From the NCBI GenBank assembly GCA_963714015.1, contig OY970223.1, positions 2,528,001 to 2,592,000 on the forward strand: 64,000 bases of DNA. The letters run 5' to 3'. Every line of letters begins with the position of its first letter. Position 1 is the stretch's first letter. The position numbers were made by a program, and so were the translations under genes. The notes under the pieces were generated by a model. That model was not told the origin of the DNA, did no database searches, and saw only the letters and a program-made list of their open reading frames with translations. This DNA comes from Vulcanimicrobiota bacterium. Its GTDB lineage: Bacteria; Vulcanimicrobiota; Vulcanimicrobiia; Vulcanimicrobiales; Vulcanimicrobiaceae. Of the stretch, positions 28,101-45,478 are shown one piece after another.

Positions 28101-28769
28101 TACGGACGGGAGAATACGACGGCGGCCAAATCGGCGAGATTTTCATCGACATGCACAAGGAAGGTGCGGCGTTCCGATCGCTAATGAACAATTTCGCGAT
28201 TGCCGTCTCGCTCGGGTTGCAGCACGGTGTTCCGCTCGAGGAGTTCGTCGAAGCGTTCACCTTCACGCGGTTTGAGCCGAACGGTCCGGTCGTCGGTCAC
28301 GATCACATCAAGATGGCGACGTCGATCCTCGACTACATCTTCCGTGAACTCGCGGTGAGCTATCTCGGCCGCTACGATCTGGCGCACGTTCAGCCGAGCA
28401 TGGAGATGGACGCGATGGGCCCCGGCGAGGAAGAGTTCGTCTCCGAAGAAACCGGCGAAGTCCATTACATCCCGGCCGGCATTCGCGAGAAGCTGCATCC
28501 CACCAGCACGCACTTGCACCCGGGCGCGCAAGTGCAGAATTCGGCCGTCGCTCCCGCCGTCGAGGAACGCCGGCAAGAACGGCGCGATCCTGCACCGGCG
28601 TCAGCCGCCACGGGCGTCGCTACTGCTCCCCGATCGGAGCAAATCACGGCCTCTCGCGCCAAGGGTTACACCGGAAACGCGTGCAGCGAGTGCGGACAAT
28701 TGACCATGGTTCGCAACGGCGCTTGCGAGAAGTGCGACAGACTGCGGAGCCACATCGGGGTGTAGTTGA
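25181..28769 (+). CDS. nrdJ: Adenosylcobalamin-dependent class II ribonucleotide reductase (one extra base near 28741)
   Basis: 'PNSPQWFN', 'SACYI', 'TNPCSEY', 'IAPTGTI', 'ISKTIN'; the C-terminal CxxC...[14 protein letters not shown] is restored by removing one base. Confidence 0.96.
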
Positions 28770-28944
28770 AAAGGTCCGGTATTTCATCTAATGTTACAAT
28801 TCGGCTCGCGGGAGTGGTGCTCGTGAGCCGCTGAAAACAAAGGGCGATCGACGAATGTCGGTTACCCTTTGGCGTTCAGCCTAAAGGTTTTCCCGGATTT
28901 GCGTAACGCAAGGAGTTACGTTCGTAGCGTTTAACGTTACGCCC

Positions 28945-30043
28945 ATGGATGGAGCATTATCGCTACCTGCCGGTGCCCGCGTCGTGCTGCCTGCCGATGT
29001 CGCCTTCCTCGACCCCGAAGAGCATATCTTCGCCGCGATGCTGGAGGGATGGAGACGACAACAGCAGAGTCGAGCCCTTCGAAAGGACACGATAACGGGG
29101 CGCCTCAAAGTGATCGCGAGATTTCACGCATTCACGGATCGATATCGGTGGCAGTGGACTGCGCAGGACGCCGTTGATTTTGGCGCGGATCTCTCGGGCA
29201 GAGTCGCTCTAAGCACGCTGCGGCAATATCAATGCGCGGGCCGACTTTTTTCCGATTATATTACTGATCCGCGCTATGAGTGGGTCGAAGAGTGTACGCG
29301 GCGCTTTGGGGCAGCGCCGATCCAGATCTGGGACGAATGGAACACGGCAGCCCATACAAGTGAATTCGAAGGTCTCCCTGCCCGCCGCCCGTTGACCTTT
29401 GAGGAAATCCAACACCTCTTCGATTACGCGGATTCTCGTTTTGCGAAGATTCGAGCTGACCGAAAAAGGGATCCCTGTCAGCGTTCCGAGACGCAGTCAT
29501 GTTCAAAGTTGCGTATGCTTATGGGCTGCGCCGACGCGAGGCGTGCCGACTGGATTTGGCAGACTTTCGAGCCAATCCGACAATGAAACGCTTCGGCCGC
29601 TTCGGCGCTCTGCACGTGCGCTATGGCAAAGGCGTAAAAGGAAGCCCTCCGCGCCGACGAGTTGTCCTTACGGTGCCGCAATTCGGCTGGATCGTCGACG
29701 TCATCGAGCAATATTTGCATGAGATTAGACCGCAGCTTGATCCCGGTGGCCATCCCGGCCTTTTCGTCAGCGAGCGTCGCGGCTATGTGACTCCGAAGCG
29801 CCTTGGAGAACGTTTTACGCAGCTTATCAAGGCTGCGAAACTGAGCGACGAACTTGAACTACATTGCTTGAGACATAGTGCTATTCTACGCATCTGGCGG
29901 AATATGGTTACGATCCGCTGTTCATACAGCACCAGCTCGGCCACACCTACGCCTCGACAACATCAATCTATACGCATGTTAGCAGCGATTTCAAGAATCG
30001 GCAAATCGTCAAAGCTCTCGAACGTCTCTACAAGAACAACTGA
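28945..30043 (+). CDS. Tyrosine recombinase/integrase (frameshifts near 29466 and 29880)
   Basis: Reconstructed catalytic set: 'YGLRRRE' (R), 'YGKG' (K), 'HCLRHS' (HxxR), 'QLGH' and 'SIYTHV' (Y); stop tga at 30041-30043. Confidence 0.9.
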
Positions 30044-30049
30044 GCACCT

Positions 30050-30379
30050 ATGACTAAGAAAATGTCGGCTAACTGGAAACTACGGGACCGCCTGGAAGAA
30101 CGCTGCATTCATTCAACGGCGGATCTTGTTCCGCTGCTAGCGGAGCGCGGCATACACCTGTCTCGTATGCAAGTCTACCGTTTGGCGGCCCAGGAGCCGC
30201 AACGCATATCACTAGATGTCCTTGCAGCTCTTTGCGATGTTCTCGAGTGTACGCCCAACGATCTAATCTCCATTTCCGTCTCCAAGAAGCAACAGCGTAA
30301 GGCCGTCGGCGAAACTCGAGCGGTGCCAGGAAACATTCGGCCGATACGCGCTAACATCCGTAAGCCGCACGACGACTAA
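30050..30379 (+). CDS. Cro/C1-type helix-turn-helix protein
   Basis: 'WKLRDRL...LSRMQVYRLA...ISLDVLAALCDVLECTPNDLI'. Confidence 0.88.
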   Translation: MTKKMSANWKLRDRLEERCIHSTADLVPLLAERGIHLSRMQVYRLAAQEPQRISLDVLAALCDVLECTPNDLISISVSKKQQRKAVGETRAVPGNIRPIRANIRKPHDD

Positions 30380-30385
30380 AAGCCC

Positions 30386-32658
30386 GTGCCTTACGAAAAG
30401 CGTGTTTACTTACCCGCTTTGTTGCTTGAGCTTTCCAAAAGCATTCCGTCTGTCTCGCAGAAGCAACTGAGGAGCTTCATCGTCAAGGCCATGCCGGATC
30501 CGCACTTCCACGGCACAATGCTTCGCTATGTCCAAAAGCATCCATACGCGCTGCGTTCTGGCCGAAGCGACATGCCACCAGCGATGATTCGCTTCGCTGA
30601 TCTGCTCGTCCGACACGGCGTACCAAACATAAAAAGGCCCGTTTGCGCTGTCTGTAACGAAGCCAAGACCCTGCCGTACAAACACGCGAGCGGTCGAGTT
30701 TGCGGAGCCTGCTTTGTGTCGCGAATTAATCTCGCAAATTGCTCCAGGTGTCATCGCCGACGTCAAATCACAACGCGCGATGAGAACGGGCCTATCTGTC
30801 CGTTGTGCTGGGGTAATGACGCACGAAATCTAGCAGCATGCACGGTATGCAACACCTACGGTCCCGTCGCCGTTCGCCCTAAAGGAAAACCGATTTGCCA
30901 GCTTTGTTACGATCGCCCACGGCGGCGCTGTGCTGATTGCAAAGCGCTTCGATACATCCACAGCACTAAAGAGGGACGGGATGTTTGCAGAGATTGCTAC
31001 TCTGCTCGTCGTCGCAACGTTGAATCCAATTGCATAGTCCGACATCGGAACACGCGCCGCCGTTCTTGCACATCTTGCGGTAAAACGCGCGCGTGCGTAG
31101 ATTATCTCACGGATAGACCCCTCTGTGTACCGTGCGCTGGCCGGCCGCACCGAAGATGTGCCGGTTGTAAAGACGCCCGTCCTGTTCAAGCAGTATGGGA
31201 AGGGGGACCCGTTTGCAGCACGTGTTATGCCACGTATTTAGACGAGCTGCGCAAATGCTCGCGCTGTCTCAAGATGGAACAGCTCGTGCCAACGCGCGAG
31301 GGTGCCCTCTGCCGGCCATGTCTTGGCACAACAGGCTCGCGATACCTGTGTGAAATGTCGCGGCTACGACAACCTGTACGAAGCGGGAACGTGCGCTCGA
31401 TGTGTCCTTCAAGCGAGAGTAGAGGAGATGTTGTCCGGCCCGGACGGCGCGATTCCCATCGATCTGCAACCTGTGCTGCGAAATCTTGTAGATGATAGGG
31501 ACCCACGTGCTGTACTCGGTTGGCTTCGAAAATCCGGTGGAGCGACGCTTTTGCGCGAGATCGCTCGCGGGAAGATTGAACTTTCACACGCCGAGCTCAA
31601 CCGAATCGGCTTCAGCAAACCAGTTATCTTCCTTCGTTGGCTACTGATTGCTAGCGGCGTGCTGTCCGAGAACGGAGCCACCGCAAGTCGACTCGAGGTT
31701 TGGCTTGACAGACTTCCTGAAGGACATCGATCACAAAGACGTGTTCATTCTTCGCACGTATGCCAACTGGCGTCTATTCCCACGGCTCCGCCGCAAAATT
31801 GACCGAAATCTGTTGACAGATTCCGGGATCAAATGGTGTCAAACTCGCCTACGCGTAGCTGCTGCGTTCCTTTCTTGGCTGCGCGAGAGCGATATACTTC
31901 TGCAATCGTGTTCGCAGCATCACATCGATGCTTGGCTAAGCAGCTCCCCATCGACAGCATATGGAATTCGCGACTTTGTTCGTTGGACATGGAGTCGTAG
32001 GTTCTCACGAAAGCTTACGGTGCCCCGTAGGTCTATAAAGTTGCCGGCCGCTGCCATCGACGAAAAGCAACGATGGGCAGAAGTAGAAAGGCTACTGCAC
32101 GATAACGCACTTCCTTTGGATCTGCGGTTGTCCGCGCTGCTAGGGCTAGTATTTGGACAACACTTAAGTCGTATCTGCTTGCTCACGGTCGAGAACGTGA
32201 CGCGAAAGGGGTCCAAGATATACGTAAAGTTCGGGAAAGATGATGTCGTCATGCCGCCAGACATCGCCCGTCTGGTGAACCAACAAGCGCAGATCAGCGA
32301 ACAGAATCCGAAAGGGCTCATGCCTAATGAGCAACGCTGGCTCTTTCCGGGGCAGGGATTCGGTACACACCTTACGCCGGACGCCTTAGGGCGTCGTCTC
32401 ACCGCCCTAGGCATCTACATGCGCCCTGCTCGGAATGCTGCACTGATGCATCTCGCTGCGCGTCTGGAACCGGTAATTCTGGCACAAATGCTGAATCTGC
32501 ACGAGAACGTTGCCGCCGAGTGGTGCCGCGCCGCTGGCCGCACGTTCAACAAATATGTCGAGCTTCGGGCATCCGCGAGTACCCTTCCACACGAGGGCAG
32601 TCGCAAGCTTCGAGATATGGCTGTTCCATCAACACCGACGTCCAGGAGATACAAATGA
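30386..32658 (+). CDS. Large Zn-finger-repeat protein with a C-terminal degenerate tyrosine-recombinase-like domain (frameshifts near 31335 and 31712)
   Basis: 16 CxxC motifs over ORFs 30386..31495 and 31302..31802; C-terminal 'GLVFGQHLSRI', 'WLFPG', 'RPARNAALMHLA...LAQMLNLH...KY'. Confidence 0.75.
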
Positions 32659-33053: not shown

Positions 33054-34909
33054 ATGACCAGGCAATACGAGCCGATGGTCCTTCATAACATTGGCTTTGC
33101 GTTGCGCCGTCTCGAACAAGACTGCGCGCCTCATCAAGAACTGCGCGAACTGGCGCAAAACGCAATTGACGCTCACCGCAACCAAAAACGAATCGACCCG
33201 CATCATAGGGGCGAGATAGTTGTAGACGTAGTTGGCCGCTCGTTCCCGAGTATGGCTTCAAGATGTGCTTCATCGATAACGCGACCGGCATGACGGGCGA
33301 CGACATCCAGAACTACATCAATCGGCTCTTCCGTTCAGGCAGTGAACAAGCCTTAGACAAGAATTACGGAATCGGTGCCAAGGTTGCCGCCGGCGTCAGA
33401 AATCCAGAAGGACTCACATACTTTTCCTGGGTCGATGGCAAGGGCGTCGTTGCGAACCTGAAATATTTTGCGGAAAACGCTGACTGGGGCCTGGAGCCTT
33501 TTGAACGCCCAGATGGTACCTACGGTGTATGGGCGCCCGTCGCGGATTCTGTAAAGCCGAAGCAAATCGACCGGCACGGCACGATGGTCGTTCTTCTTGG
33601 AAAATCTGCGGATCACAACACGATGCTGCCGCCGGAGAACGTTACAAGCAAGACGCGGTGGCTTTCAAAGTATTTCAACCTGCGCTATTTCCGCCTTCCC
33701 GATGGAGTGGAGATGCGGGTTCGCCTCTTCACATCTCCGGACCCCGATCAATGGCCAACTGTCGAGGTAAACTCCAATCCACTGGGTGCGCAGCTTAACA
33801 GAGTCACCGGACAAGAATACATATTGAACAAACTCGCGTCAGCGAAGGGAACGGTTCGGCTCTCCGGTTGCAAGGCGCACTGGTGGATAATGCCGGCAAG
33901 AGAAGACCGCAGAGACGTAGGTCATCAGCAGCATCACGTTGGTGGACATATCGCAGCGCTTTACCAAGACGAAATCTACGACATGCGAATCGGCAACGAC
34001 GGGTACAGCGAGTTGCAGCGTTTTGGCGTCCTATTCGCATACAAGCGCGTGATAATCTATCTAGAACCGGACCCAAGCACGGTGCTTCCCGACACGTCAC
34101 GTTCTCGACTTCTGATGGATGGTCAACGCCTACCGTATGTCACCTGGGCGCGAGAATTCTCTGAAAACATGCCCAAAGCTATCAAAGCCTTGGACGACGA
34201 GATCCTTGCGAAGGCGGAAAAAACACCACGAGCCGAGTCCATTGCTAAACGCCTTGAGCGCATTAAACACCTTCTTCAGCCGAGCCGCTATCGTCGGTCT
34301 ACTAAAGGCGCGATACCGGTTGACCCTGATGACTTGATTCTCGGTGGAATGCCGGAGAGCAAGAAGGATGGGAAAGTCACTCCTATCGGCAACGGGCGCT
34401 CGGGCGGCGTGGCTTCCAGTGGAAGACGTCTTGCTGCATTCATCTCACCAAATGATGAAGCGCAGCAGCGCGCTACTCCCGCAGTTGCTCCGCTCAATAT
34501 CCCGATGATCGAATGGGTAAGCGTTGCAGCAGGAACTCGAGAGCCGGGCTTTCAGGAAGACCGTGCAGCATGGTATCTTCCAGAGTCGCGCACAATATTC
34601 GTGAATCGAGACTTCCGCGGCTTTGCCGATATGCATCGCGACTTCTTGAAACGGCACGGTGCAGTTCCGAACGCGGCTATCAAGATCTGGCATGCAATAG
34701 AAGAGTGGGTCGGCCAGCAGCTGTGCGAGGTTGTCATAGGAATCGAGGGTTACGCCGGCTCGCAATATTGGCTGCCGGATAGCGTTAACGCAGCCTTGTG
34801 CCCCGAGGCCTTAACTGCGGCCGTGATGTCCCGCTGGTTCGTGTACGGACAGGTTTCCCGCGCACTTGGAAGTGTCTTGCGTACGCAGGACGCGGAACAG
34901 ACCGCGTAA
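33054..34909 (+). CDS. GHKL (Hsp90/MORC-like) ATPase (frameshift near 33231)
   Basis: N-box 'LRELAQNAIDA', G1 'IDNATGM', G2 'NYGIGAK', G3 'HGTMV'; TAAGGAG RBS. Confidence 0.8.
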
Positions 34910-34970
34910 GCGCCGTCTGATCTGCGATGCACGCGCTCACTTCACGGCCGTTCTTCTGCAAGGTGGTACA

Positions 34971-37900
34971 ATGATCGACTTGCCGCTACCGCTACTCCAG
35001 GGCATTGAGAATGGATCCTGCGTGCTCTTTTTGGGAGCTGGCGTAGGATCACATTACGCCCGCACTGGGCAAACGATGCCGGACTCTGCATCGCTTGCAT
35101 TAGAGATAGTCAGCATTTTCAACTGGACACGCGCGGCAGCATAAATCTCGCCGAAGTTGCGGAGTTTGCTGAACTTCGCAAAGGGAGGGCTGCCCTAAAT
35201 GCGTTTGTTCGCGAGCGCCTCTCAAACTTCGCTCCGGACGAAATAGCCCAATGGCTTACCACCGTTCGTTGGCGAAGCATATTTACGACCAACTACGACG
35301 ACGGTATTCTCGCCGCGTATAGGAATAATCCACACCCGCCTCAATTAGCGGTTCCAATAACATCTACCGGTGGTATTCGATACTGCGACCGTCGCTTGGA
35401 AGTGCCAGTCTATTTTTTGCACGGGTTCATCGGCGCGGGTGATGAGTCGCGTCTGCTCATAACGGAGACTGACTACATCCGATTCAGGGACCGCCGCGAA
35501 ACTTTGTTTTCTCTGCTCAAGGAACAATTCGCGCAGTCGACGTTCCTTTACGTCGGCTACTCGAATCGCGACCAGAATTGGAAGACCCTCTTGGATGAGG
35601 TTCAGCGCGAATTCAGTCCTAAACCCACTCCACTATCATATCGTCTAACTATCGACGAGCCTTCGATGGCGGATGCACTGCTTGAAGCGCGAAATGTCTA
35701 CACGCTGCATTGCTCCCTCTCGGACTTTTGTATGGCTGCGCGCGCGCAGCTTCATGCTGTTGAAATGACGTCTTCGGCTTTGGAGAAGCTCGAGCGCGAT
35801 ATCCCGCCCGACTTTGCTGAAGACTTCACCGACAATCCAGTTGCCGTGGCTCGTTTCTTCAACTCCTGGCAGTATGTCAATCAGTGCGACTTTTCCCAGC
35901 CTTCAAATGCGCACGCTTTTCTTCGCGGCGACCGGCCAAACTGGGGTCTCATCGCTCAGAAACACTTCTTTCAACGCGATGTCGAGGACCCGCTCTATGA
36001 TGAGATGCTGGACTACGCAACGAGCGGCGCACTACGCGAAAGCTTAACCCTATTGGGTCACGCTGGCTCGGGCGTAACCACTGTACTCATGTCGCTGGCG
36101 GCAAGACTAGTCCGTGAAGGCGCGGGCCCCGTATATTTCCTAAGGCCTGGAGCACAAGTCCTCGAGGGGGATGTGCTATTCGTGGCCCAACGTGACCCTC
36201 ATGTAAAACCGTTCTTCTTTGTCGACAACGCCGCGATCGAAAAAGAGCGCCTTCGACGGCTTGTGCAGCGCGTTCAGAGTTCTCATGCGAACGGGATGCT
36301 CGTCCTCGGAGCACGTCTCAACGAGTGGAGAGAATCCACTGTCCGCCTAGCAACTAAAGAACGTCAACTTCTACAGCTTGGCCCTGACGAGATACCGCGA
36401 CTTTTGACGCTCCTGGAAAACAGCGGCGAACTTGGCGTTCTAGCCGATCTATCCCCCGAACTACGCGTGGTGAAGATTCAACAAAGTAACTCGAACGATT
36501 TGCTCGTGACGCTTCGCGAGGTTACCGAAGGACGCTCCTTTGACGCGATAATCGAGGACGAGTATCTCGGTATCCATTCCGAGCTTGGGCGCCGATTCTA
36601 TCTCATGGTCGCGTGCTTTTTTCAAAAGCACCTATTTGTTAGGGATACGCTGTTAGCGCGACTGCTCGATGTAGATACTGAAGAAATGTTCCGTGAGACG
36701 AACGCAGCCACCGAAGGCGTGGTGCTATACGAAACAGTCGATGAGGCAAACGGCGTGTTCGCCGCAAGGGCGCGGCACCGGGTCATTGCGCAAATAGTTT
36801 GGGAGCGTTGCGGATCGCGAACCGAACGCGAGGACCTTCTGCTACGCGCAATGTCCTTCCTTAACCTCGCTTACAAATGGGATCGCGATGCTTTCGATCT
36901 TTTCGTAAGGTCTGACGAGCTTGTCGATTTTTTCGGAACTCTCGAAAAGAAGACGCGATATTTCGATACTGCGATCAACAAAGACCCCGACAATCCTTAC
37001 GTGCGCCAGCACTATGCGCGAATGCTTTCCAGGGAAGGTCGTGACTTGCTTGCGCTCAGTCAAATCAACGAGGCCCTTTCCATAAACTCTAACCCGAGAG
37101 CGCTGCACCACACCAAAGGCCTGATCTTGGCGCAACTCGCTCTCGGCTCGCCTAGTCCGGATGTCGGTCGACGCTATCTTCTTCAAGCCGAGGATGCATT
37201 CAACACTTGCATTCAAAAGAGCCCTCGGGACGACTACGGTTATACTGGCCTCGCGCATCTGTACCTCGAATGGGCTAAGCGATGTGAGAACGTCGATGAC
37301 GCGACCGGCTACACCGCCCGAGCGGAGTCCCTGATCAGCGATGGACTGCGTCGCGCTAGCATCCACGAGTCTCTGTGGCTTGAATCAGCCCGCGTTGAGG
37401 CATACCTTGGTGATTCTGAAGCACGAATCCAAGCGCTTGAGAAGGCGCACGGGAGCTCGCCAAGCAGCCCGATCGCAGCGTTCTTGTTAGCACGCGCGTA
37501 TAGACGCGACGGCAGAGCTGCAGAGGCCGAACAACTCTTGCAGCCAATCATTCAAACCGCCGTTGAAGAGTTCCGCGTCTTTATAGAGTACGCGAAATGC
37601 TTGATCGCTCTAGGGAAGCCGTATAAAGAAGCTGCGGCAGTCCTCCGCTTGGCGTACCTTTCGGGCCTTTCTGATCCTCGCTATATTGCGACGCTCGGCG
37701 GCATGCTTTGTCTAGGCAAGGACTATACGGCAGCACTAGACGTCTTCAGCGAAAGCGCGAAGCGCGGCTTTTCATTGGGCGAACGCACGCGGATTTTCTA
37801 CCGACCGCGTATAGACGGTAGAGGTGACCGAATCCGCCTCACGGGACGGATCAGCAGCGTCAAAGGGAACTATGCATTTATCATAGCTGCGGATTTCGGA

Positions 37901-38110
37901 ACCGATGTTTTCTGCCCTCGCTCGCGTCTTGATGATGTGCTGACAACTGAGGGCACATTCGTCGAGTTCGATCTTGCTTTCAGTTCGCGAGGGCCTATCG
38001 CAGACAGCATAAGCCTCGCCCCAAAGGCGGCAGCAATGGCCACCGTGACTCCGCCTTCAGCCGGCGTTGACCAGCTACCTGATGAACATGTCGGCGGATG
38101 CGATTCTTAG
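34971..38110 (+). CDS. SIR2-like + STAND-type P-loop NTPase + TPR + C-terminal cold-shock/OB-fold protein (frameshift near 35111)
   Basis: 'VLFLGAG', 'IFTTNYDD', 'YFLHG' and 'LYVGYS' (SIR2); 'GHAGSGVTT' and 'FFFVDN' (Walker A/B-like); helical repeats; 'GRISSVKGNYAFI...DVF...VEFDL..SSRGPIA' OB-fold. Confidence 0.82.
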
Positions 38111-39042
38111 GCATGTCCCACTATGGCTACCTTTTGCGATCGTTCTTGCGACTCAAGTCATTACACTATTCTTTCTTCACGAGCGAGAATCTCGGACGCT
38201 CCGCTGGTGGGCAAGAAATCTAGTCATACTACTTGGCATTACAAGCGCAGCGGTTGCGTACTTGTTCCAGGTTCGTTCCCAAGAGATTGCGCAGTTAGTC
38301 CGGGCTCAAGTGAACCTTACAGATGCGTCAATGGCGAAACAGGCAACTCACCTCCGCAATCTGCAGGAACAGCTTTCTCAGGATAAGCCGCACATCGCTA
38401 GAACTGAGCAGCTCGCGAAGACATTAACCATTGCGTTGACGCAGGCACAAGAGAAACTCGCCTCGCAGCAACAACGTGTCACGGCGCTGATTGTCTCAAC
38501 ACGACAGACTGAGGAATGAATCCTCGATCGCGTTCTCGCACTCGGTAGCCGCTCTCAACGTTTCGCGGCGAGTTCAGAGTACAACGCAAAGGATTTCCAG
38601 AGAAGCTAACGAGCAACTTTCCCTCGCCGAACAAATGTCGCGCGAGGCGGCAGCCAAGGCGGGGATCTACAGATTTTCGCCGCTGCTCCTTTCCCGTATG
38701 ACAGCGATACTTTCGCATGCGGGTGTCGGCAAGGCGGCTGTTTCATGTGCTCCCGGCCTTGAGTCGCCATGCGATGATTTAGTGTCGGCGTTCTTAGCGG
38801 CGCGCTGGACAACATCCGTTCTACACGCGGCCTCCTTCTGGGGCGGCCTTGACGTTGTGCCAGCTGGGGTGATGACGGAGGCAGGGCTTGTTGTTCTTTA
38901 TGGACCTCGCTCTGAACGTACTGCAGACGAGTTGATCAACGTGCTGCGAGCCACCGGACTAAGGCTCGAAGCAGAGCCCGATTCAAGCGCCTACGACGTT
39001 TCAATAGTTCTGCGCCACGTTGAGGGAGCGCTGTCGCAGTAA
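38088..39042 (+). CDS. Membrane-anchored coiled-coil protein (probably one gene, frameshift near 38495)
   Basis: Two TM helices followed by a Gln/Ala-rich coiled coil that continues into ORF 38491..39042. Confidence 0.55.
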
Positions 39043-39090
39043 ACCTTACACCGAATCCATATCCTCGATGAGGTCATGCGACAACGAGCC

Positions 39091-39128
39091 GAATATGTAC
39101 TGGTCGGAATATGTACCCCTACCAGTAA
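39091..39128 (+). repeat. Junction site copy A
   Basis: GAATATGTAC TGGTCG GAATATGTAC CCC TACCAGTAA. Confidence 0.9.
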
Positions 39129-39309
39129 ATGATACGCTTCGGCGGCGTGGCGAATCGTGGCGCCAGAATACGCCGGGTTTTGAATACCCGGAGGCAGTAC
39201 CCGTTATATCGAGCGACGGCGACGAGGCGGCGCCCTCTTACTTCTTTTTCCGCCAATATATGTACGGCTGAAGGTGTAACGCCGGACAGTTCAGGAACGT
39301 AGATTTCGT

Positions 39310-40692
39310 ATGCTGCAATTGATTCTTGCTGCCGCGCTTACGGAGCCCACCCAGCACAATTATTCCACCGCCATGAAGAGCGGGAAGATTCCCGGAATGC
39401 AGGTTGTAGTCGTCGACCACGGTAAGGTCATCCTCGACGATGCGCTGGGTGTCAAAAACGTCCTCACTCAAGCGCCGGTCGACGTACACACGCGTTTCGA
39501 GATCGGTTCGATCACCAAACAGTTCACCGCGGCCGCTATCCTGCAATTGCGCGAGCGCGGAAAACTTTCACTAGACGATGTACTTAGCAAGTACGTTCCG
39601 CAATACGTGCGTGGCCGGAAGATTACGTTGCGGCAAATGCTTCTACAGATCAGCGGCATTCCGGATTATAGCGAGACTAGCACCTTCAACAGCCTGGGCG
39701 CCTACCGGAACGGCCGAATTGTAATTACGAAGCGTGGTGACCTCGCGGCGGTCGTTGAGATCATCCAAGGCAAGAAACTCGACTTCACACCAGGTACGAA
39801 GTGGGAATACAGCAACACGAATTACTATATGCTCGGCTATATCGTGCAGCGTGTTTCAGGAATGCCATGGAGCGCATATATTCGGCAGCATATCTTCGCG
39901 CGTGCGAATATGAGCGAGAGCTCATTCATGCAGGACGAACCGGGCATGGCTGACTTGGCAACCGGTTACACCCGGTACAAAAATAGAATCGATCCGACTG
40001 GCAATTATGCTGGATGGGCCGGCGGAGCTGGCGCGATCGTTTCAACCGCCGCAGATCTAGCGAAATGGGACGCAGCACTATTTAACGGCAAGATCATCAG
40101 CGCGGTGGATTTAAAATTGATGACCTCGCCAGGACCGTTACCGGCGCTTGACGGAAACGCGCGGTATGGCTTCGGCTGGGTGATCGACAGCTACGACGGA
40201 CAGGCGCGCTTGTGGCATAACGGTGGCACGATCGGCTTCAGCGCGAGCAACGAAGTCTATCCGAAGCAGTCACAAGCGATTGTCGTACTGAGCAATCGGG
40301 AGAGCGGCACCGACTCAATCGCGCAGAAGACGTTTGACACGCTGCATCCAGAGTTCGTGGCGACGCAAAACAAAGCCGCGGCGGGCGAAGACCGCGCGGT
40401 CACCGCGCGTATCAAGATCACGTATTCCTCGCTCATGTCGGGGCATCTCGACCGAGCCCAGTTCACCAAAGAGGCCCAAAAGGGCATCACGCCTGATGCT
40501 GTGGCGCCATTGAAGCAGCTTGTCGCGCCTATGGGGCGAGCAGAAACATGGGTCTATCGCGGCAGTCAGGAGAAAAACGGCGCAACGACTTACACGTATC
40601 GCGTGACGTTTAGCAGCGGCATGATGCTGAACGTATACATGACGTTGGACAAAAACAACAAGATTGCTGCGTATTGGGTATCGCCGACCTGA
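39310..40692 (+). CDS. Serine hydrolase, beta-lactamase/class C PBP family
   Basis: SxxK 'GSITK', 'YSN', 'HNGG'. Confidence 0.9.
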   Translation: MLQLILAAALTEPTQHNYSTAMKSGKIPGMQVVVVDHGKVILDDALGVKNVLTQAPVDVHTRFEIGSITKQFTAAAILQLRERGKLSLDDVLSKYVPQYVRGRKITLRQMLLQISGIPDYSETSTFNSLGAYRNGRIVITKRGDLAAVVEIIQGKKLDFTPGTKWEYSNTNYYMLGYIVQRVSGMPWSAYIRQHIFARANMSESSFMQDEPGMADLATGYTRYKNRIDPTGNYAGWAGGAGAIVSTAADLAKWDAALFNGKIISAVDLKLMTSPGPLPALDGNARYGFGWVIDSYDGQARLWHNGGTIGFSASNEVYPKQSQAIVVLSNRESGTDSIAQKTFDTLHPEFVATQNKAAAGEDRAVTARIKITYSSLMSGHLDRAQFTKEAQKGITPDAVAPLKQLVAPMGRAETWVYRGSQEKNGATTYTYRVTFSSGMMLNVYMTLDKNNKIAAYWVSPT

Positions 40693-40819
40693 GGATAAAC
40701 AGCACTTCACGAAATGTTGGGCGGTGGCCGTTATGCCGTTGCCATCAAACGACGACAATGCTTGTGTGGGTGTCGGTCCAAAGCGCGCGGCGTAAGCATC
40801 GCTAAACTGATACGGAGCG

Positions 40820-41971
40820 TCACGCGAGTTCCGGCGGTGGATGCGAATGGCGTAACAAGGAATCGAGAAGCGCCAGGACATCCGGGAATCGCTCCCTTAC
40901 GGCGCGGTCGTTGCCGCCGGCCGGTACCTGGAACTCGCGCACGTTGAATCCGGTGAACACCACCGACGACCCTCGAAGCGGATCGCCGTTCTCCATGTAA
41001 TGGTACGGAAAGTTCGTGAAGAATACGATGGCACCGGGTAGGCCGCTCGTCTGCGGGTTCTGCTCCAGGCGTTTGACCTGCGAGCCGAGCCTATCGAACC
41101 ATCCGGACTCGAGAATGTGCGCCTCGCTCGGCGGGACGTTGATATCGATGAAGACGAGTCGCTCATGCAATGCATTCTTGCGCAACGCTGCCACGAGCAG
41201 ACTCGTTATGTCGGCCTCGATCTCCACAAGCCGCCCGGGCGTCCCCGGATACCCAAGGAATCCCGCACGATGGCGACTCTTGGCCTCGACAGAATACTGC
41301 TTGCCCGTCTTCATGTAGGTCGCGGTGAATTCGCAATGCGTTGATGACCGATTGCTTTCATCTTCGAGACCGATGGAAAAGCCGGCGCGGACGAGCGCGG
41401 CCGCAACGAATGCTTCGTATCGAGCACCCTGAAACTGATCCTTCCGCTGCAAGCGGTCTACCAGGCGCTGAAGCAGCAGCGAATGATGCTCAAGCGTGTA
41501 GATATCGTACGCAAACGCTAGCAGTGCCGATATCTGCGCTGGTGGATTGTCGATTTTATTGATATCGCCGAGCGCGACATCGGAGCGGTGCGCCGCCCAG
41601 AAATCGAACCAGACCTGATACCACTGCATGAGCGGATGCCGATCCTCGAGTGGCAGCGACTGTTCGTTCTTGAACCAGTCTTTCGCGAATACGGCTCCGA
41701 TATACGAAAATAGGAAGTCGTGGAACGTCTTCCATTTGTGGTACAACAGGCGCGACCCGACCGCGACGAACGTCTGGCCCGCGTGGCCCATCCAGATCGG
41801 CGGCTTGACGTAACCGTATTTTTCGATGCGCTCGGCCTCTTGGCGCTGCGCTTCAGCGAGTTTCAACCGGACACTTTCGGGCATCGTCAACCGGCGTGCT
41901 TTTTCCAAACAGCAGCGCTTATGCTTCTTCCCGCTGCCGCACGGGCAAGGACTATTTCTACCAATCTTCAT
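40820..41971 (-). CDS. SEC-C motif protein with a possible PD-(D/E)xK-like C-terminal domain
   Basis: 'KIGRNSPCPCGSGKKHKRCC'; 'GARYE...HCEFTA...VEAKSR'. Confidence 0.75.
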   Translation of the reverse strand: MKIGRNSPCPCGSGKKHKRCCLEKARRLTMPESVRLKLAEAQRQEAERIEKYGYVKPPIWMGHAGQTFVAVGSRLLYHKWKTFHDFLFSYIGAVFAKDWFKNEQSLPLEDRHPLMQWYQVWFDFWAAHRSDVALGDINKIDNPPAQISALLAFAYDIYTLEHHSLLLQRLVDRLQRKDQFQGARYEAFVAAALVRAGFSIGLEDESNRSSTHCEFTATYMKTGKQYSVEAKSRHRAGFLGYPGTPGRLVEIEADITSLLVAALRKNALHERLVFIDINVPPSEAHILESGWFDRLGSQVKRLEQNPQTSGLPGAIVFFTNFPYHYMENGDPLRGSSVVFTGFNVREFQVPAGGNDRAVRERFPDVLALLDSLLRHSHPPPELA

Positions 41972-42085
41972 CTTGACCAAGGCCCGGCCCGCGAGATAGG
42001 GCAGCCTCGACCATTATATGGCCTACACGCTGGGCATGGTCCGCCGCTTTCCACTGGCCTGCGCAGGCCCAGCGCTCAAGGGATT

Positions 42086-42573
42086 CTAAGGCCTCAGGTA
42101 CACCCACTCTCCACGTAGGAATTCGGGACGATCGAATAGGCCCGCATAAACTCCAACGTGAAACTCCGCTGCCTAACCAGCAGCAACGCCGAAGCATACA
42201 GTCAGCAGCACCTGTGGCGCGCCGACGATAAGCACTCTCTTGCGCGCGTTCAGGATGCCAATGAGCGTCGCCAACCCTATAGCCGACCAGATGCCGGGCC
42301 ACCACGTCCAATGCAAGTCGATCAAGGCTGGTATCTGAAGGTAGACTGCGATACTGCAGTTCGGCTGTCCCAAGAAATGTCCCAGACGCTATGGATACCG
42401 CAACCGATAAGGAGACTTAAGAACTTCGTCAGGTCAAGCTGCGATGGTTCAACCCATCGTTTGACGAGAGTGGAATTGGGATTGCGCCATGCAGCGATGC
42501 CGAGCAGCATCGCTAAAACGCCAGCTGGCAAAGCCCCCGCTGCCCAAAGCAATAAGCCGACGCTGCAGACCAC
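42086..42573 (-). pseudogene. Disrupted membrane protein gene
   Basis: Hydrophobic fragments in ORFs 42322..42573 and 42173..42373, joined by a frameshift, with an in-frame stop. Confidence 0.35.
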
Positions 42574-42658
42574 CCCGGATCATTATAGAGGCGCAGTCGC
42601 GACCCTTGCTGTTTCTTCGCGCCTTGCGATTGCGGCCTTCATAGTCTCCGATTTGGGG

Positions 42659-42697
42659 GAATACGTACCGGTCGGAATATGTACCCCTTACCAGTAA
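42659..42697 (+). repeat. Junction site copy B
   Basis: GAATACGTAC CGGTCG GAATATGTAC CCC TTACCAGTAA, then TAGCTAGA. Confidence 0.9.
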
Positions 42698-42959
42698 TAG
42701 CTAGATAGTTAGAATGCGTGAGGCACGCATTATAGGACTTACGCATATTCCGCACTCCCTAGAACCAACGAAAAGCCGACGAACTACGCGTCGGCTTTTC
42801 GCATTCGGGACAGCGCTTTCGGATATTTGATTGCGTGAGTCAAGGGCACGCTAGGCCTATCCTTGACCTGGGTGGATGCCGCTGCTCCTAATGCTGGTCG
42901 TTCAACCGGCCGATACGACCCAGAGTCATATTCGGCACTTATTTGTAATGGAGCACACA

Positions 42960-44003
42960 TTGCGCAAACACGTTTTTGGATTGGCCCTTGCGGGGGCGTC
43001 GGCTATGCTGGTGGCCTGCGGCGGCGGATCCACGCCGTCCGCGATCCCCACGGCATCTCCCGCCCCGAAGCAAACGGCTTCTCCAAGCCCTAAGCCGACC
43101 GCTTCGCCGACGCCGACTCCGACGACCGGCCCGAATTCGCAGATGATCTTCGTGGCGGATCGCACCACCAACGCGATCCTCGGATTCGCCGCGAACGCGT
43201 CCGGCAACGCCGCTCCGACCATCGACATCACGAGCTCCGCGTCGGGCTTCGGTCCAGCACTATCGCTCGCGATGAGCGCAAACGGCACGATGTACGAAGC
43301 CGGCGACAGCACCGATTACATCAACGTATTCAATTGGGGCGACAACGGCAACATCTCGCCGGATTCATGGGTGCAGAACAGCAACCCCGTGACGAGCGAG
43401 GGAGTCGCGGTCGATTCGAGTGGAAACATGTACGAATCTTCGTACTCTTTCCCATGCGAAATCGACGAGTACGCCGCCGGCAGCAGCGGCACGATGGCTC
43501 CCACGAACGTTCTCTCGGGAGCGAATACGCAACTGACTTTCCCGACGGACATGGCGTTCGACTCGAGGAATCGACTGTACGTCGGCCAGGGGGGCAGCTC
43601 CATCCTGATCTTCGCGGCGGGCGCGACGGGCAACGTCGCACCGGTTGCGACCATTGCCGGTTCGAACACGACGTTGACGTCGGTAACGGCGATGTCGTTC
43701 GACGCCGCTGGCCGCCTGCTCGTGGCGGATGCCTCGGGCAAGATCCTGGTGTTCGCGGCCGGGGCTACGGGCAACGCAACTCCGGTGCAGACGATCTCGG
43801 GATCGAACACCGGTCTCTCGGCTCCGAGCGGCGTCGCGGAAGACGCCCAGGGCGGAATCTGGGTTTCCGACAACGGTTCCTCGCCGAACACGACGGGACT
43901 GTATCGGTTCTCTAAGAACGCGAACGGCAACGTCGCGCCGATCAGCACGATCAAAGGCGCGGCGACGCTGCTTGTCGACCCGTTCTACGTGCAATTGCAC
44001 TAA
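42960..44003 (+). CDS. Lipoprotein with NHL/beta-propeller-like repeats
   Basis: Lipobox 'LVACGGG', Pro/Thr linker, repeated 'FAAGATGNxAPxxTIxGSNTxL' units. Confidence 0.85.
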   Translation: MRKHVFGLALAGASAMLVACGGGSTPSAIPTASPAPKQTASPSPKPTASPTPTPTTGPNSQMIFVADRTTNAILGFAANASGNAAPTIDITSSASGFGPALSLAMSANGTMYEAGDSTDYINVFNWGDNGNISPDSWVQNSNPVTSEGVAVDSSGNMYESSYSFPCEIDEYAAGSSGTMAPTNVLSGANTQLTFPTDMAFDSRNRLYVGQGGSSILIFAAGATGNVAPVATIAGSNTTLTSVTAMSFDAAGRLLVADASGKILVFAAGATGNATPVQTISGSNTGLSAPSGVAEDAQGGIWVSDNGSSPNTTGLYRFSKNANGNVAPISTIKGAATLLVDPFYVQLH

Positions 44004-44022
44004 GGCGCGACGGTGTAGAAGC

Positions 44023-44057
44023 GAAACGGCCCGGGTTTTCGGACTCGGGCCGTTTTC
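44023..44057 (+). terminator. Intrinsic terminator
   Basis: gaaacggcccggg-ttttcgga-ctcgggccgttttc hairpin right after the lipoprotein stop. Confidence 0.75.
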
Positions 44058-44434
44058 GTTCGTTCGCTGGAATCTGCGCAGGGCTCGCCGCGCGGCGGCG
44101 GTATCGGAAGGGAAACCAATGAACCGTAGATGCCAGGAAAAACAAACGCCTATCGCGGCCGTCAGTATTATACGCTGACGTATAAGAGTATCGCCGGTCA
44201 ACCGTTGCCGGCCGGAATCCGAACCCGGATATGAAGTCCTTTTCCCGTGACGCACGCGCGGAACCCGTTCGAAGCCGGGCGCTCCGAACACAAACGGCAT
44301 TACGGCTAGACTCTTTCCGATGACGCCGGCCTACAGAAGCTCGACCACCAAAAACCATAACAGGACTTAGATGAGCCCTTCGAGTCAAAACCGGACTTAC
44401 GTTCAAAATGTCACCAGGGCCTAGTTGAAATGCT

Positions 44435-44473
44435 GAGTATGTACCGGTTGGAATATGTACCGGTTACGGGTAA
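44435..44473 (+). repeat. Junction site copy C
   Basis: GAGTATGTAC CGGTTG GAATATGTAC CGG TTACGGGTAA, then AAGCTAGA. Confidence 0.88.
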
Positions 44474-44554
44474 AAGCTAGAACCTTCCGGGTAATCCACT
44501 TAAGAGGGCGACGGCGTGAAGGCGCGGCCGCTCTCTTCCCATTTCTTGGTCGGT

Positions 44555-45073
44555 CTACAAACGAAACAGCATCGCAAGGCCAGATGAGAGAACCTTCATC
44601 ATAAACGCCGGTGAATAGCCTTTGTACGAAGGGATGTCGTCCGCGAATACCTTGCCATTCTGCAGAAAGCTGGTGCAGATACGCATCTGTATCGCCGGCG
44701 CATTAGGCCCGAGTCGCTCGCGGTAGATTGGGACCCAATGCCGCGCGTCATCGAAGCGCATCAAGACCGCCGAATTGCAGCAGCAGGCGACGACCCGATT
44801 TGTCTTGGGATTATGCTCGACCTTATAGTCTTTGAGGAGTTCGGAGCCCTTGACGTAGGTCACACGATCCTTCCGGTAAAGGACATATTCCGTGCCGCCG
44901 TCTGCCCGTCGCACGGAAGGCGCATTCGGCAACGCTTCGATGCGGCTCGAACCTTCCTGGCACGTGTCGCAGTAACAAGCGAAACTACCGATCGGCACGC
45001 CCTTAAGCACCAAAGCGACGGACCCGCAAGAACACTCAGCAAATACCGTGTTGTCGGCGGCTTGAAGCGTCAT
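44555..45073 (-). CDS. GFA/CENP-V-like Zn-binding protein
   Basis: 'CSCGSV', 'CYCDTCQ', 'ACCCNS' cysteine pattern. Confidence 0.75.
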   Translation of the reverse strand: MTLQAADNTVFAECSCGSVALVLKGVPIGSFACYCDTCQEGSSRIEALPNAPSVRRADGGTEYVLYRKDRVTYVKGSELLKDYKVEHNPKTNRVVACCCNSAVLMRFDDARHWVPIYRERLGPNAPAIQMRICTSFLQNGKVFADDIPSYKGYSPAFMMKVLSSGLAMLFRL

Positions 45074-45140
45074 GGGTGTTCGTGTGCCGTGAGGGAGAAA
45101 TTATCCCTCTTTGCGTCCAAGTGTCAACCACCTGACACAT

Positions 45141-45179
45141 GAATACGCCCACGTTGGAATAGGTGCACCTTACCAGTAA
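45141..45179 (+). repeat. Junction site copy D (degenerate)
   Basis: GAATACGCCC ACGTTG GAATAGGTGC ACC TTACCAGTAA, followed directly by a copy of the island left-end motif. Confidence 0.8.
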
Positions 45180-45478
45180 AGCCCCGGATTTTCATCAGAT
45201 GTTACAATTCACCGTCTGATGATCGTGCTCAGAAACGCGTGATTGAAGGGGTTGTCGGCAATACACCGTCAGCCTCTTCTTCTTTTGCCGCCTGCATTTG
45301 AAAGGGCACGTAATGCCGGCCGAACTTTTAACCGCCACGCCGCGCCGCCACGTGCATTCACCGAAACTGACTTATGTCAGCCATCCCCGACATTACGCGT
45401 CATCTTCTTGCGGTCGTGCTCCAAATGCCGGCGCGGAACGTTTTTACCAACGCGAACTGAATTAACTTCGATGGGCCG

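Follow-up and report, generated by a model that had tools for sequence, protein, structure and literature searches.

Co-oriented candidate att sites stacked behind nrdJ in a Vulcanimicrobiota genome

The island downstream of nrdJ

The window analyzed here, a 64,000-nucleotide stretch of the genome labeled G000, contains nrdJ followed by an island whose GC content is mostly 0.52-0.58, against a genome mean of 0.61. Four copies of a short motif (A to D) had been placed in it by the first-pass annotation, and all four proved genuine, each on the plus strand at the coordinates given.

25127..28769, plus: nrdJ, class II ribonucleotide reductase, the presumed target gene (Pfam Ribonuc_red_lgC, 4e-125; Ribonuc_red_2_N)
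28770..28944, plus: putative left end (L arm) of the integrase-bearing element, attL side (direct repeat D11)
28945..30053, plus: intA, ordinary tyrosine recombinase, broken here (Pfam Phage_int_SAM_4 and Phage_integrase on two overlapping ORFs)
30050..30379, plus: HTH_26 (Cro/C1-type) small DNA-binding protein (Pfam HTH_26, 4e-14)
30386..32658, plus: intB, large tyrosine recombinase, split here into ORFs 30386-31495 and 31648-32658
33263..39042, plus: cargo of the integrase unit (548-aa unknown protein, SIR2-STAND NTPase-TPR protein, 183-aa unknown protein)
35396-38110, plus: SIR2-STAND NTPase-TPR defence-type protein (Pfam SIR2_2, nSTAND_NTPase5, TPR)
39070..39130, plus: right-end site A (core copy 39091-39130; profile E 6e-12)
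39131..42648, mixed strands: unit 2 cargo (serine hydrolase, SEC-C protein, small unsupported ORFs)
39310-40692, plus: serine hydrolase, beta-lactamase family (Pfam Beta-lactamase, 1e-74)
40820-41980, minus: SEC-C motif protein (Pfam SEC-C, 1e-7)
42649..42698, plus: right-end site B (core copy 42659-42698; profile E 3e-15; flank comparison)
42699..44354, plus: unit 3 cargo, with an NHL-repeat beta-propeller protein at 42876-44003 (Pfam NHL and other beta-propeller repeats)
44355..44427, plus: second type of unit end, GGACTTA(G/C) boxes and then ...AATGTCACCAGGGCCTAGTTGA
44428..45180, plus: integrase-less, putatively mobile unit C-GFA-D (site C, GFA-like gene, site D)
44435-44474, plus: site C of C-GFA-D
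44555-45073, minus: GFA-like gene (Pfam GFA)
45114-45180, plus: site D of C-GFA-D (core copy 45141-45180)
45178..45290, plus: L-arm-like sequence right after site D (82.6% identical to G168 8808-8916; repeat D11)

The C-terminus of nrdJ (...CGATSGCS*) is conserved. Owing to a 1-nt indel near 28741, it is read here in the +1 frame and ends with the TGA at 28767-28769; the final hexamer, AGTTGA (28764-28769), bounds the insertion point on the left. The L arm holds AAAGGTCCGGTATTTCATCTAATGTTACAATTC and GTTAC boxes ahead of intA and likewise lies 3' of the nrdJ stop in G168, a genome of another genus. The two copies of direct repeat D11, one after the nrdJ stop (28770-28802) and the other after site D (45178-45210), are 82% identical. 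In G168, positions 8808-8916 sit between the nrdJ stop and intA, and the similar stretch at 45178..45290 may be a relic of an older G168-type element's left end, or else the flank that originally followed nrdJ.

The "three-gene module" of the first-pass annotation is indeed a trio, but it consists of IntA, the HTH_26 protein and a single large IntB, and both recombinase genes are interrupted here. A tblastn search with the intact 368-aa IntA of G168 recovered three pieces (28963-29457, 29466-29879, and 29882-30040), and frame changes are visible in intB, which is unbroken in G089 (728 aa) and G421 (743 aa). Since IntA lies in three frames and IntB in two ORFs, the local module is probably dead. 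One break falls in a GAAAAAGGG run, so the breaks could instead be assembly indels. The HTH_26 gene is kept between IntA and IntB in G168, G089, G145, and G421, and its product is also conserved on actinobacterial plasmids. The N-terminal half of IntB is rich in cysteine, with 16 CxxC motifs within the first ~340 aa. An AlphaFold model of the C-terminal half (pLDDT 87.7) had Cre, XerA, XerH, Tn1549 Int, and lambda Int as its best Foldseek matches (probability 1.0), and a tyrosine-recombinase fold is thus predicted for this half.

The cargo units are in mixed orientation and have their own expression signals. PADLOC gave a weak ThsA SIR2 match for the SIR2-STAND NTPase-TPR protein, and the NCBIfam matches of the serine hydrolase were far under the class C beta-lactamase cutoffs.

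Motif copies and their occurrence in relatives

The motif, ~45 bp long, has four copies in the 3.56-Mb genome, on one strand and within a span of 6.1 kb. A 24-nt core pattern (up to 3 mismatches) matched B, C, and D, whereas none of 100 dinucleotide shuffles contained any match. A profile built from the four copies matched only A to D in the whole genome (E 5e-14 to 2e-11; next E 4.9), as did a profile from 28 unique copies drawn from many genomes (E 8e-19 to 6e-12; next E 3.9). A genome-wide operator was rejected, since the profile matched nothing but A to D in 3,562,638 bp.

Across the family the motif takes the form GAATA-N11-GTTGGAATA-N8-TTACCAGTAAA. When the 28 unique copies were aligned, strong conservation was limited to these three blocks and dropped sharply past ...CAGTAAA, directly after TTACCAGTAAA. 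The ~40-bp element with two 10-bp direct repeats, as initially described, holds for the spacing of the boxes, 16 bp apart, but the element is longer, with a weaker box (TGCCAA-N9-CACAT) immediately 5' of it. The full repeat GAATAYGTAC is a trait of A to C and is absent as a family-wide feature; in copy D both 10-mers are degenerate (GAATACGCCC / GAATAGGTGC). The palindrome was said to be kept even in the divergent copy C, but copy A reads CTACCAGTAA after a 1-nt deletion. An inverted TTAC-N2-GTAA core is less likely than a counterpart, in the element, of the nrdJ terminus ...GY AGY TRR A that also marks the place of crossover. The location of the sites is mostly intergenic, as claimed, but B covers the final codons of ORF 42158-42697, for which there was no Pfam match, and A overlaps ORF 39020-39271. 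No Rfam family was matched by the motif.

The right flanks differ among copies: some begin with an nrdJ-type hexamer (AGCTAG, as after site B, or AGCTAA) and others with L-arm-like sequence. These flanks would fit a lambda-like identity core or, alternatively, a 6-bp coupling sequence of the Tn554/SE kind. Contrary to the earlier proposal, not every junction is made by the motif. The second end type at 44355..44427 combines GGACTTA repeats with a AATGTCACCAGGGCCTAGTTGA stretch that mimics the final ~18 nt of nrdJ; in G421 it borders the intA element on the left (97% over 37 nt), and a variant in G145 is followed by nrdJ-downstream-like sequence.

When 401 genomes of the phylum were scanned with a motif pattern, 6 contained it, all of one family (5/296 in the family, 0/104 outside it). 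Related genomes of Eremiobacterota and contigs from soil carry the motif, with 1-7 co-oriented copies per locus in profile scans of the retrieved contexts. As in the genome studied, these copies lie behind nrdJ and are not scattered. The motif had nrdJ upstream of it, on a common strand, at 14 distinct loci (G000, G001, G013, G089, G145, G168, G211, G251/L039, G269, L032/L033, L034, L036, L037, and L031/L038), and the motif followed the orientation of nrdJ in all copies, whatever the direction of the cargo.

An IntA relative was found in 8/301 family genomes. In all five with a close homologue and usable context (G000, G168, G089, G145, and G421), the motif comes after IntA-HTH-IntB and shares its strand, as the first-pass annotation had expected of its recombinase module. 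In G421 the motif match is weak (E 0.03); the ~2.2 kb retrieved upstream of intA showed no nrdJ, and the contig extends only ~0.8 kb more. Two distant IntA relatives (33.9% by tblastn; 35-38% in the genome search) were without the motif. Conversely, five genomes (G211, G251, G269, G001, and G013) have motif arrays without a close IntA, so the sites outlast the enzyme, and their activity is putative. In contig L035 the motif, L arm, and intA are joined directly. A glyoxalase block has opposite orientations with respect to the motif in G211 and G269, an inversion that does not fit simple cassette shuffling.

Origin of the array

Over 753 bp, C-GFA-D shares 98.7% identity with G168 19933-20684, whereas nrdJ is only 72.5-74.9% identical between the two genomes. 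Both ends of this homology break exactly at GT|AAA, with unrelated flanks, so that the predicted coincidence of breakpoints with the motif was borne out for this unit. Removing C-GFA-D from the G168 flanks recreates a motif-plus-flank layout that is intact in G089 and L034. Additionally, A to D are 70-83% identical to one another, while A (92.7%) and B (94.7%) are closer to the G251/L039 copy and C (92.5%) to a G211 copy; the four copies would thus have independent origins.

We consider it probable that the motif is the right-end, integrase-distal att site of elements that insert, with site and orientation specificity, at the last codons of nrdJ. The array is best read as att-type right ends that successive site-specific insertions have stacked, a tandem accretion with units resembling CIMEs. 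The role of each site as the right end of a unit, proposed earlier, agrees with this, as does their nature as recombination junctions. The machinery would be the conserved trio of IntA (a tyrosine recombinase of ~370 aa), the ~110-aa HTH_26 protein, and IntB (~730-745 aa), the latter with eight putative paired zinc-ribbon-like CxxC repeats ahead of its recombinase domain. The two GAATA-containing boxes, 16 bp apart, may serve as arm-type protein-binding sites, although any pairing of protein and box is conjectural. TTACCAGTAAA would be the element's counterpart of the nrdJ terminal ...TGY AGY TRR A, and strand exchange would take place in or beside GT|AAA, the exact crossover nucleotides being surmised. 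Each fresh insertion at the same core would shift older material distally, leaving a co-oriented stack with a right-end site retained at every junction. Some stacked units, small (0.7-3.6 kb) and without a recombinase, may have been inserted in trans or carried along in a CIME-like manner, any movement on their own being conjectural. The transfer of C-GFA-D between genera as a unit indicates that such units can do one or the other.

A functional analogue of the integron is a less probable explanation, and we regard it as unlikely. Here the resident IntA/HTH/IntB would routinely excise and insert single integrase-less units behind nrdJ, each bearing its own recombination site, and the stack would be a gene reservoir. 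Many units are indeed small and recombinase-free, spanning 0.7-3.6 kb in this genome, 2.0 and 2.35 kb in G211, and ~1.1 and 1.6 kb in L036. A single integrase module heads the array in G000, G168, and G089, and the 750-bp C-GFA-D has exact site-core boundaries in two genera. Furthermore, 15 other genomes hold a GFA homologue, and the 10 further family loci scanned were ordinary and motif-less, which suggests capture from the host gene pool. Against this, C-GFA-D is the only unit found in two places, arrays lacking the module persist in five genomes, and units of mixed orientation carry their own expression signals. L-arm remnants or the second end type lie at several junctions, as decayed whole elements would leave, and the sites and IntA are not of the integron type. 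For this and for the favored reading alike, it is a point against that no excised circles or alternative junctions were seen in the only public runs covering part of the region, which are low-depth contig sets without joints. Of the non-autonomous cassettes originally proposed, at least one integrase-less unit, C-GFA-D, is common to two genera.

It is very unlikely that the motif is an operator for an island regulator such as the HTH_26 protein, repeated at cargo promoters through co-regulation instead of recombination. Sites A and B do lie ~180 bp 5' of plus-strand genes, direct-repeat boxes with 16-bp spacing are typical of many DNA-binding proteins, and the module includes a conserved HTH gene. 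Yet C is at the 3' end of the minus-strand GFA-like gene, D is on the promoter side of that gene with only an unsupported 99-aa ORF after it, and promoter-like matches in the region are at chance level (4 observed vs 3.6 expected). Moreover, the copies keep the nrdJ orientation despite varying cargo direction, conservation ends at ...GTAAA regardless of the next gene, homology between genomes breaks exactly where the motif ends, and the genome holds no further copy. Least probable is a local repeat without a dedicated enzyme (MITE/REP-like, or in-situ duplication with homologous recombination), as the copies are short, repeated, noncoding, and clustered, but A to C match other-genus copies at up to 95%, more closely than the four match each other, and the copies stand in one orientation behind nrdJ without scattering in any genome examined. 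On its outer side, moreover, the shared unit's left breakpoint in G000 shows no motif homology, so homologous recombination between repeats cannot account for it.

Under serial insertion, the array in this genome is most likely a frozen record, probably a fossil rather than an active platform, because intA and intB are interrupted.

Comparison with known systems

Tandem integration is reportedly known for SGI1. As outlined in parts of a review (PMC5704250), integrative elements and CIMEs accrete in tandem (ICESt1/ICESt3-type, IME tandems) through successive site-specific insertions at the 3' end of a single conserved gene. There, as here, att sites bound and divide a composite array, and internal units without recombination genes retain att sites and adjoin one integrase-bearing element. 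The target here is nrdJ instead of a tRNA or fda-type gene, a two-recombinase trio replaces Int plus Xis, many units, at 0.7-3.6 kb and 1-3 genes, fall far below the usual size of CIMEs, and the host belongs to an uncultured lineage of Eremiobacterota. Genes for conjugation or mobilization were not seen here. The ssrA-specific islands of Dehalococcoides, in the portion of their description consulted (PMC3146451), are likewise numerous and specific for one conserved single-copy gene, with a syntenic integration module in only 16/31 and cargo phylogenetically discordant with it; their target, the tmRNA gene, and their recombinase module differ.

The trio itself recalls Tn554 (TnpA/TnpB/TnpC), SEs or strand-biased circularizing integrative elements (IntA/Tfp/IntB/Srap), and GInt, as covered in parts of PMC10214605 and PMC9345347. 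By layout, these pair an ordinary tyrosine recombinase with an unusually large one and have a small protein between or next to the two, insert with strong site and orientation specificity, and have no visible transfer machinery. The nrdJ-terminus-type hexamers beside some right ends accord with the 6-bp footprint of SE and Tn554. Unlike in those systems, the middle gene here encodes a Cro/C1-type HTH protein and 16 CxxC motifs are arrayed in the IntB N-terminus; no TnpC or Srap counterpart was identified. In one of these papers, SEs are reported from Gammaproteobacteria only and Tn554 from Staphylococcus and Enterococcus only.

With integrons (IntI, attI, attC), the array shares one recombinase locus at the head of co-oriented sites that divide unrelated genes, as well as units without their own recombinase. 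Integron identity, and with it the integron-like platform first suggested, was rejected: no attC-like folding or single-strand hairpin common to the sites was found, there is no R''/L''-L'/R' architecture, and IntA scored 60.7 bits against an integron-integrase cutoff of 265, in line with the initial remark that the sites are not canonical attC and the integrase is not IntI-type. In addition, cassettes of 1-3 genes lie in both orientations, and the entire structure appears to be itself inserted at a chromosomal att site. The array thus resembles tandem island accretion more than an integron, and would be integron-like by analogy only.

The motif at loci behind nrdJ

The first-pass annotation had placed four copies of a junction motif on one strand, and all four were confirmed at their coordinates on the forward strand, downstream of nrdJ and of a recombinase trio. 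The features of this region are as follows.

25127-28769: nrdJ
28770-28944: L arm, the left end of the integrase-bearing element
28945-30053: intA
30050-30379: HTH_26 gene
30386-32658: intB
39091-39130, + strand: site A
42659-42698, + strand: site B
44435-44474, + strand: site C
45141-45180, + strand: site D
44428-45180: the C-GFA-D unit, with a GFA-like gene

A pattern of the motif core allowing up to 3 mismatches matched B, C and D and none of 100 shuffles, a 1-nt deletion being the sole reason that copy A was missed. The window belongs to one 3,562,638-bp contig (GC 60.9%), and an nhmmer profile built from the four copies found only these four in the whole genome (E from 5e-14 to 2e-11, the next candidate having E 4.9), as did a profile from 28 unique copies of many genomes (E 8e-19 to 6e-12; next E 3.9). 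The motif is thus not scattered genome-wide upstream of core genes, the distribution that the first-pass annotation held to speak against its own proposal, and, with no fifth copy in the genome, a genome-wide operator is ruled out. GC is lower around the copies (mostly 0.52-0.58 at 29-48 kb) than farther upstream in the window (about 0.60-0.64). Over 28-48 kb no Rfam match was obtained at E<=1, and promoter and terminator scans of the region gave counts no higher than in shuffles. A tRNA as the attachment target was rejected, as the window has a single tRNA, tRNA-Ser at 22375, and the island starts 6 kb downstream of it. The four sites are 70-83% identical to one another, and A-C are closer to copies in other genomes: a copy of the related genome G251 (contig L039) is 92.7% identical to A and 94.7% to B, and C is 92.5% identical to a copy in G211. 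This argues that the sites came in separately and not via local duplication.

Alignment of the 28 unique copies revealed a strongly conserved succession of GAATA, 11 nt, GTTGGAATA, 8 nt and TTACCAGTAAA, with a weaker box, TGCCAA-N9-CACAT, upstream of it. The perfect 10-bp repeat described earlier holds for copies A-C but is not a feature of the wider family. Information content falls to background directly past the terminal GTAAA, a drop that reads as the signature of an element terminus and not of an operator. The sequences 3' of this terminus belong to a few recurring types: an arm similar to AAGSYCCGGWATTTCATCWRATGTTACAATTC; AGCTAG or AGCTAA followed by A; and a hairpin-containing sequence with CACTTACGC. 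Every one of these types is also seen directly behind the nrdJ stop codon in some genome. Furthermore, of 14 relatives, 13 have an nrdJ that itself ends in ...GGN TGY AGY/TCN TRR; the end in G017 could not be read cleanly. From this terminus pattern and the shared post-terminus types, TTACC AGT AAA looks like an element-borne counterpart of the nrdJ terminus.

Of the 28 right ends, 4 have behind them an exact AGCTAG or AGCTAA, hexamers known as nrdJ termini from other lineages, and 3 more have near variants; in some copies the match reaches 9 nt. The hexamers could be ordinary displaced target flank, with which the 9-nt extension is compatible, or a Tn554/SE-like 6-bp footprint or coupling sequence, taken from the donor's left flank to the new right junction. 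No convincing inverted repeat between the two ends of the element was found by eye, where only GTTAC-type boxes recur. On the minus strand at 45100-45127, a near-consensus promoter-like TTGACA-16 nt-GATAAT (11/12) is directed into the GFA-like gene. Reverse-complemented, the conserved TGCCAA/TGTCAA box ahead of the motif gives the -35 hexamer of this site, so that in many copies the box may serve as an inward-facing promoter element.

Scanning 185,579 species genomes for the exact pattern gave 5 loci, 3 of them in Eremiobacterota MAGs with the full motif (2, 3 and 1 copies). The matches in Hyphomicrobiales (L003) and Bryobacterales (L005) have the 20-nt pattern alone, the rest of the motif being absent, and were set aside as chance; about nine chance matches to this pattern are estimated for a collection of that size. 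With mismatches tolerated, 6 of 401 genomes of the phylum had the motif, including G000, the genome to which the window belongs; all 6 are from one family (5/296 there, 0/104 in the other families), and a metagenome scan found it on nine soil contigs, with three copies on one.

Motif copies in related genomes and contigs, counted by profile scan of the 20-58 kb fetched around matches
G089: 7 copies, two weak
G168: 4 copies, one weak (E 0.05)
G211: 3 copies
L036: 3 copies
G001: 2 copies
G013: 2 copies, second partial
G269: 2 copies, second partial
G145: 1 copy
G251: 1 copy
G421: 1 copy, weak (E 0.03)

Within each locus all copies share a strand, and nrdJ is upstream on the same strand in 14 distinct loci. 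The exceptions are the 1.2-kb contig L035 and G421, in which nrdJ was not found in about 2.2 kb upstream of intA, the contig stopping about 0.8 kb beyond. In G015 (L060), the nrdJ stop codon is followed immediately by a partial motif (ATATGTACGCCTTACC), beyond which there is no element. In the motif-less G008 (L055) and G009 (L050), the nrdJ terminus is tandem-duplicated past the stop (CTCGTAG T CTCGTAG and CTCGTAA T CTCGTAA, respectively), and these short duplications may be footprints of an earlier insertion and excision.

The recombinase trio and the island boundaries

The three-gene recombinase module proposed in the first-pass annotation is present, with a different make-up: IntA, an HTH_26 protein and one large protein, IntB. 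Intact IntA has 368-377 aa and a Pfam Phage_integrase domain. IntB is a single open reading frame of 728 aa in G089 (L040:1351-3534) and 743 aa in G421. Its N-terminal ~340 residues contain 16 regularly paired CxxC motifs, a spacing that suggests about eight zinc-ribbon-like repeats, an unusual appendage on a tyrosine recombinase, and this half is a candidate for recognizing the repeated GAATA boxes. Searches of the two IntB halves (30386-31495 and 31648-32658) against Pfam, PDB sequences and PADLOC gave no matches. The recombinase domain was recognized only by PHROGs (phrog_1 integrase, 9e-7), by a profile match to XerD (E 0.008) and by fold search, in which a model of the C-terminal half from 25 homologues (pLDDT 87.7) retrieved Cre, XerA, XerH, Tn1549 integrase and lambda integrase at probability 1.0 in Foldseek. 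The C-terminal half is accordingly modeled with a tyrosine-recombinase fold. With NCBIfam, the recombinases showed a weak match to the gamma-mobile-trio recombinase GmtY (29.1 bits; cutoff 340).

In G000, the IntA alignment is spread over three frames, and at least two frame changes break up IntB. The number of breaks, four in 3.3 kb of recombinase genes vs one in 3.6 kb of nrdJ, suggests true decay. One IntA break lies inside a GAAAAAGGG run, so the frame breaks could also be assembly errors. The local copy of the element is probably inactive.

Of 301 family genomes, 8 carry a relative of IntA. Co-occurrence of motif and module, on which the original proposal depended, was borne out in all five close IntA genomes with usable context, each having the trio and then the motif; the two distant IntA relatives are without this arrangement. 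The trio stands at the head of the array in G000, G168 and G089, and motif arrays without a close IntA were found in G211, G251, G269, G001 and G013. Beyond the phylum, 231 plasmid records from actinobacteria contain full-length IntB homologues (~30% identity, >95% coverage), with 99 from Streptomyces, 54 from Rhodococcus and 19 from Arthrobacter among them. Both plasmid contexts inspected, from Rhodococcus (L085, NZ_CP040720.1) and Streptomyces (L086, NZ_CP108636.1), have the same trio order, with a tyrosine recombinase, an HTH protein of ~109 aa and a large protein of 700-840 aa annotated 'hypothetical protein'.

The 33 nt behind the nrdJ stop (28770-28802) are 82% identical to 45178-45210, behind site D, and 45179-45286 shares 82.6% identity with the G168 interval that separates the nrdJ stop from intA. 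On contig L035, a motif copy runs straight into an arm of this type, with intA next. Taken together, these three observations point to the L arm as the integrase-proximal (left) end and to the motif as the integrase-distal (right) end. A motif-plus-arm junction is the expected content of a tandem array or an excised circle. Insertion is always straight behind the nrdJ stop, with intA pointing away from nrdJ (G000, G168, G089 and G145).

In G000, the annotated nrdJ frame ends in ...DRLRSHIGV* because of a 1-nt indel about ten codons before the end (28735-28769); the ...CGATSGCS* tail of all relatives is in the +1 frame, with its TGA at 28767-28769. This frame change reflects either a mistake in the assembly or damage to the redox tail. 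The open nrdJ frames of G251 (L026:636-5447) and G269 have 1604 and 1556 aa, respectively, vs 1212 aa in G000, and tblastn of nrdJ is broken by long gaps in G145 and G089, which suggests inteins or other insertions in the relatives' genes. On the far side, synteny with G001 (same genus), G007, G168 and G211 returns only at about 54.5-55.8 kb, at an OmdA/YCII block. Consequently, the motif-free DNA from 45.3 to 54.5 kb, including an adenylate cyclase-AAA-TPR gene (47821-50811) and its neighbours, is variable as well. In G168, this flank block has one more motif copy behind it.

Units exchanged at the sites

The C-GFA-D unit is 98.7% identical over 753 bp between G000 (44428-45180) and G168 (19933-20684), two genomes whose nrdJ genes are 72.5-74.9% identical and whose IntA proteins are 56-75% identical in pieces. 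On the left, identity begins at AAATGCT, preceded by ...CCTAGTTG in G000; in G168 it is preceded by ...TTGCCAGT, with which a further degenerate motif copy ends. At its right edge, the identity stops at ...TTACCAGTAAA, followed by GCCCCGG... in G000 and TGCGTTAG... in G168. With the unit removed, the G168 locus has the motif-plus-flank arrangement that is intact in G089 and contig L034. Outside the left breakpoint G000 shows no homology to the motif, so homologous recombination between repeats fails to explain these boundaries; they are explained by site-specific exchange at GT|AAA.

The left neighbour of the unit in G000 is not a motif but a second end type (44355-44427), composed of two GGACTTA(G/C) boxes about 31 nt apart and then AATGTCACCAGGGCCTAGTTGA, an ~18-20-nt mimic of the nrdJ 3' terminus. 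The same sequence adjoins the intA element on the left of intA in G421. In G145, a variant (24510-24680 of the context) has AGCTAA as its last hexamer, followed by nrdJ-downstream-like sequence. The last hexamer is that of the genome's own nrdJ in both G000 and G145.

GFA homologues were found in 17 of 348 family genomes, the near-identical unit only in G168. Ordinary homologues (68-83% identity) are present in 15 further family genomes, and none of the 10 such loci scanned, among them L083 of the unpublished genome G270, has the motif. Between G211 and G269, a glyoxalase block is inverted and on opposite sides of a motif, an arrangement that does not fit neatly with the proposed scheme. Public reads on 28600-47000 (a soil run with 13% of the sampled words and two runs of the same study) gave short low-depth contigs without joints or circles, which provide no argument for or against activity.

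The array cargo includes a SIR2-STAND-TPR protein (35396-38110) in G000; DUF4238, TCAD9/APH, AbiEii-like AAA and KAP NTPase genes in G089; and DNA methylases (R-M), a type III restriction-like protein and an E1-like ThiF/DUF6791 protein in G168. Given these defence-type genes, the system may be one route of defence-island assembly in these bacteria.

These results describe the nrdJ 3' end as an insertion hotspot in Eremiobacterota, together with the grammar of its attachment sites, and tie it to a conserved recombinase trio in which the large protein has no annotation beyond 'hypothetical'. For this phylum of uncultured soil bacteria, there are essentially no descriptions of mobile elements. 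Judged by title or abstract, none of the papers found on Eremiobacterota integrases and mobile elements deals with such elements, and nrdJ is mentioned in none of the papers listed for nrdJ, integrases, genomic islands and attB. The sharply defined sites would make a simple recombination assay feasible.

Comparison with known accretion systems

The first-pass annotation had proposed an integron-like platform, with recombination junctions dividing the DNA behind nrdJ into non-autonomous units. This mechanism is right in kind, but the array is not an integron on any of the three features tested (integrase, attC sites and cassettes). IntA of G168 and G089 scored 60.7 and 37.1 bits on the IntI-type profile TIGR02249 (cutoff 265) and 37.8 and 21.4 bits on NF011946 (cutoff 435). 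Folded as DNA, both strands of the four copies gave z-scores of -2.65 to +1.27 and no common hairpin, so attC-like sites were rejected; attC sites are imperfect inverted repeats acting as single-strand hairpins, whereas the motif consists of direct boxes. Integron cassettes are mostly promoterless, with one gene each in one orientation behind Pc, in contrast to cargo on both strands with 1-3 genes per unit here.

A less likely interpretation is that the trio represents a so far undescribed kind of site-specific accretion machinery, which would mobilise in trans integrase-less mini-units of 1-3 genes, each with just an end site, and stack them behind an essential gene. If this were true, the trio system would be a double-strand-DNA functional analogue of the integron.

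Tandem accretion with CIMEs, described for ICEs and IMEs (PMC5704250), involves an array at one conserved att site with repeated sites in direct orientation, as found at the 14 nrdJ loci, and recombinase-less internal units that keep their att sites, as do units 2-4 of G000 behind the trio at the array head. Under this model, single and composite units would be excised by att x att recombination; the low-depth contigs of the public reads contained no joints. The array also resembles the gene-specific island families of Dehalococcoides (PMC3146451). According to PMC10214605 and PMC9345347, the hallmark of Tn554, SEs and GInts is the combination of an ordinary and a large tyrosine recombinase with strict site specificity and no transfer genes. 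IntA (368-377 aa) and IntB (728-743 aa) reproduce this pairing, and insertion behind the nrdJ stop is likewise site and orientation specific; the likeness drawn here is one of organization. With the trio on actinobacterial plasmids, element types with an ordinary plus a large tyrosine recombinase reach well beyond the hosts named in the SE/Tn554 literature cited. The nearest known frame for the nrdJ arrays is tandem accretion by a Tn554/SE-like two-recombinase element, rather than an integron.
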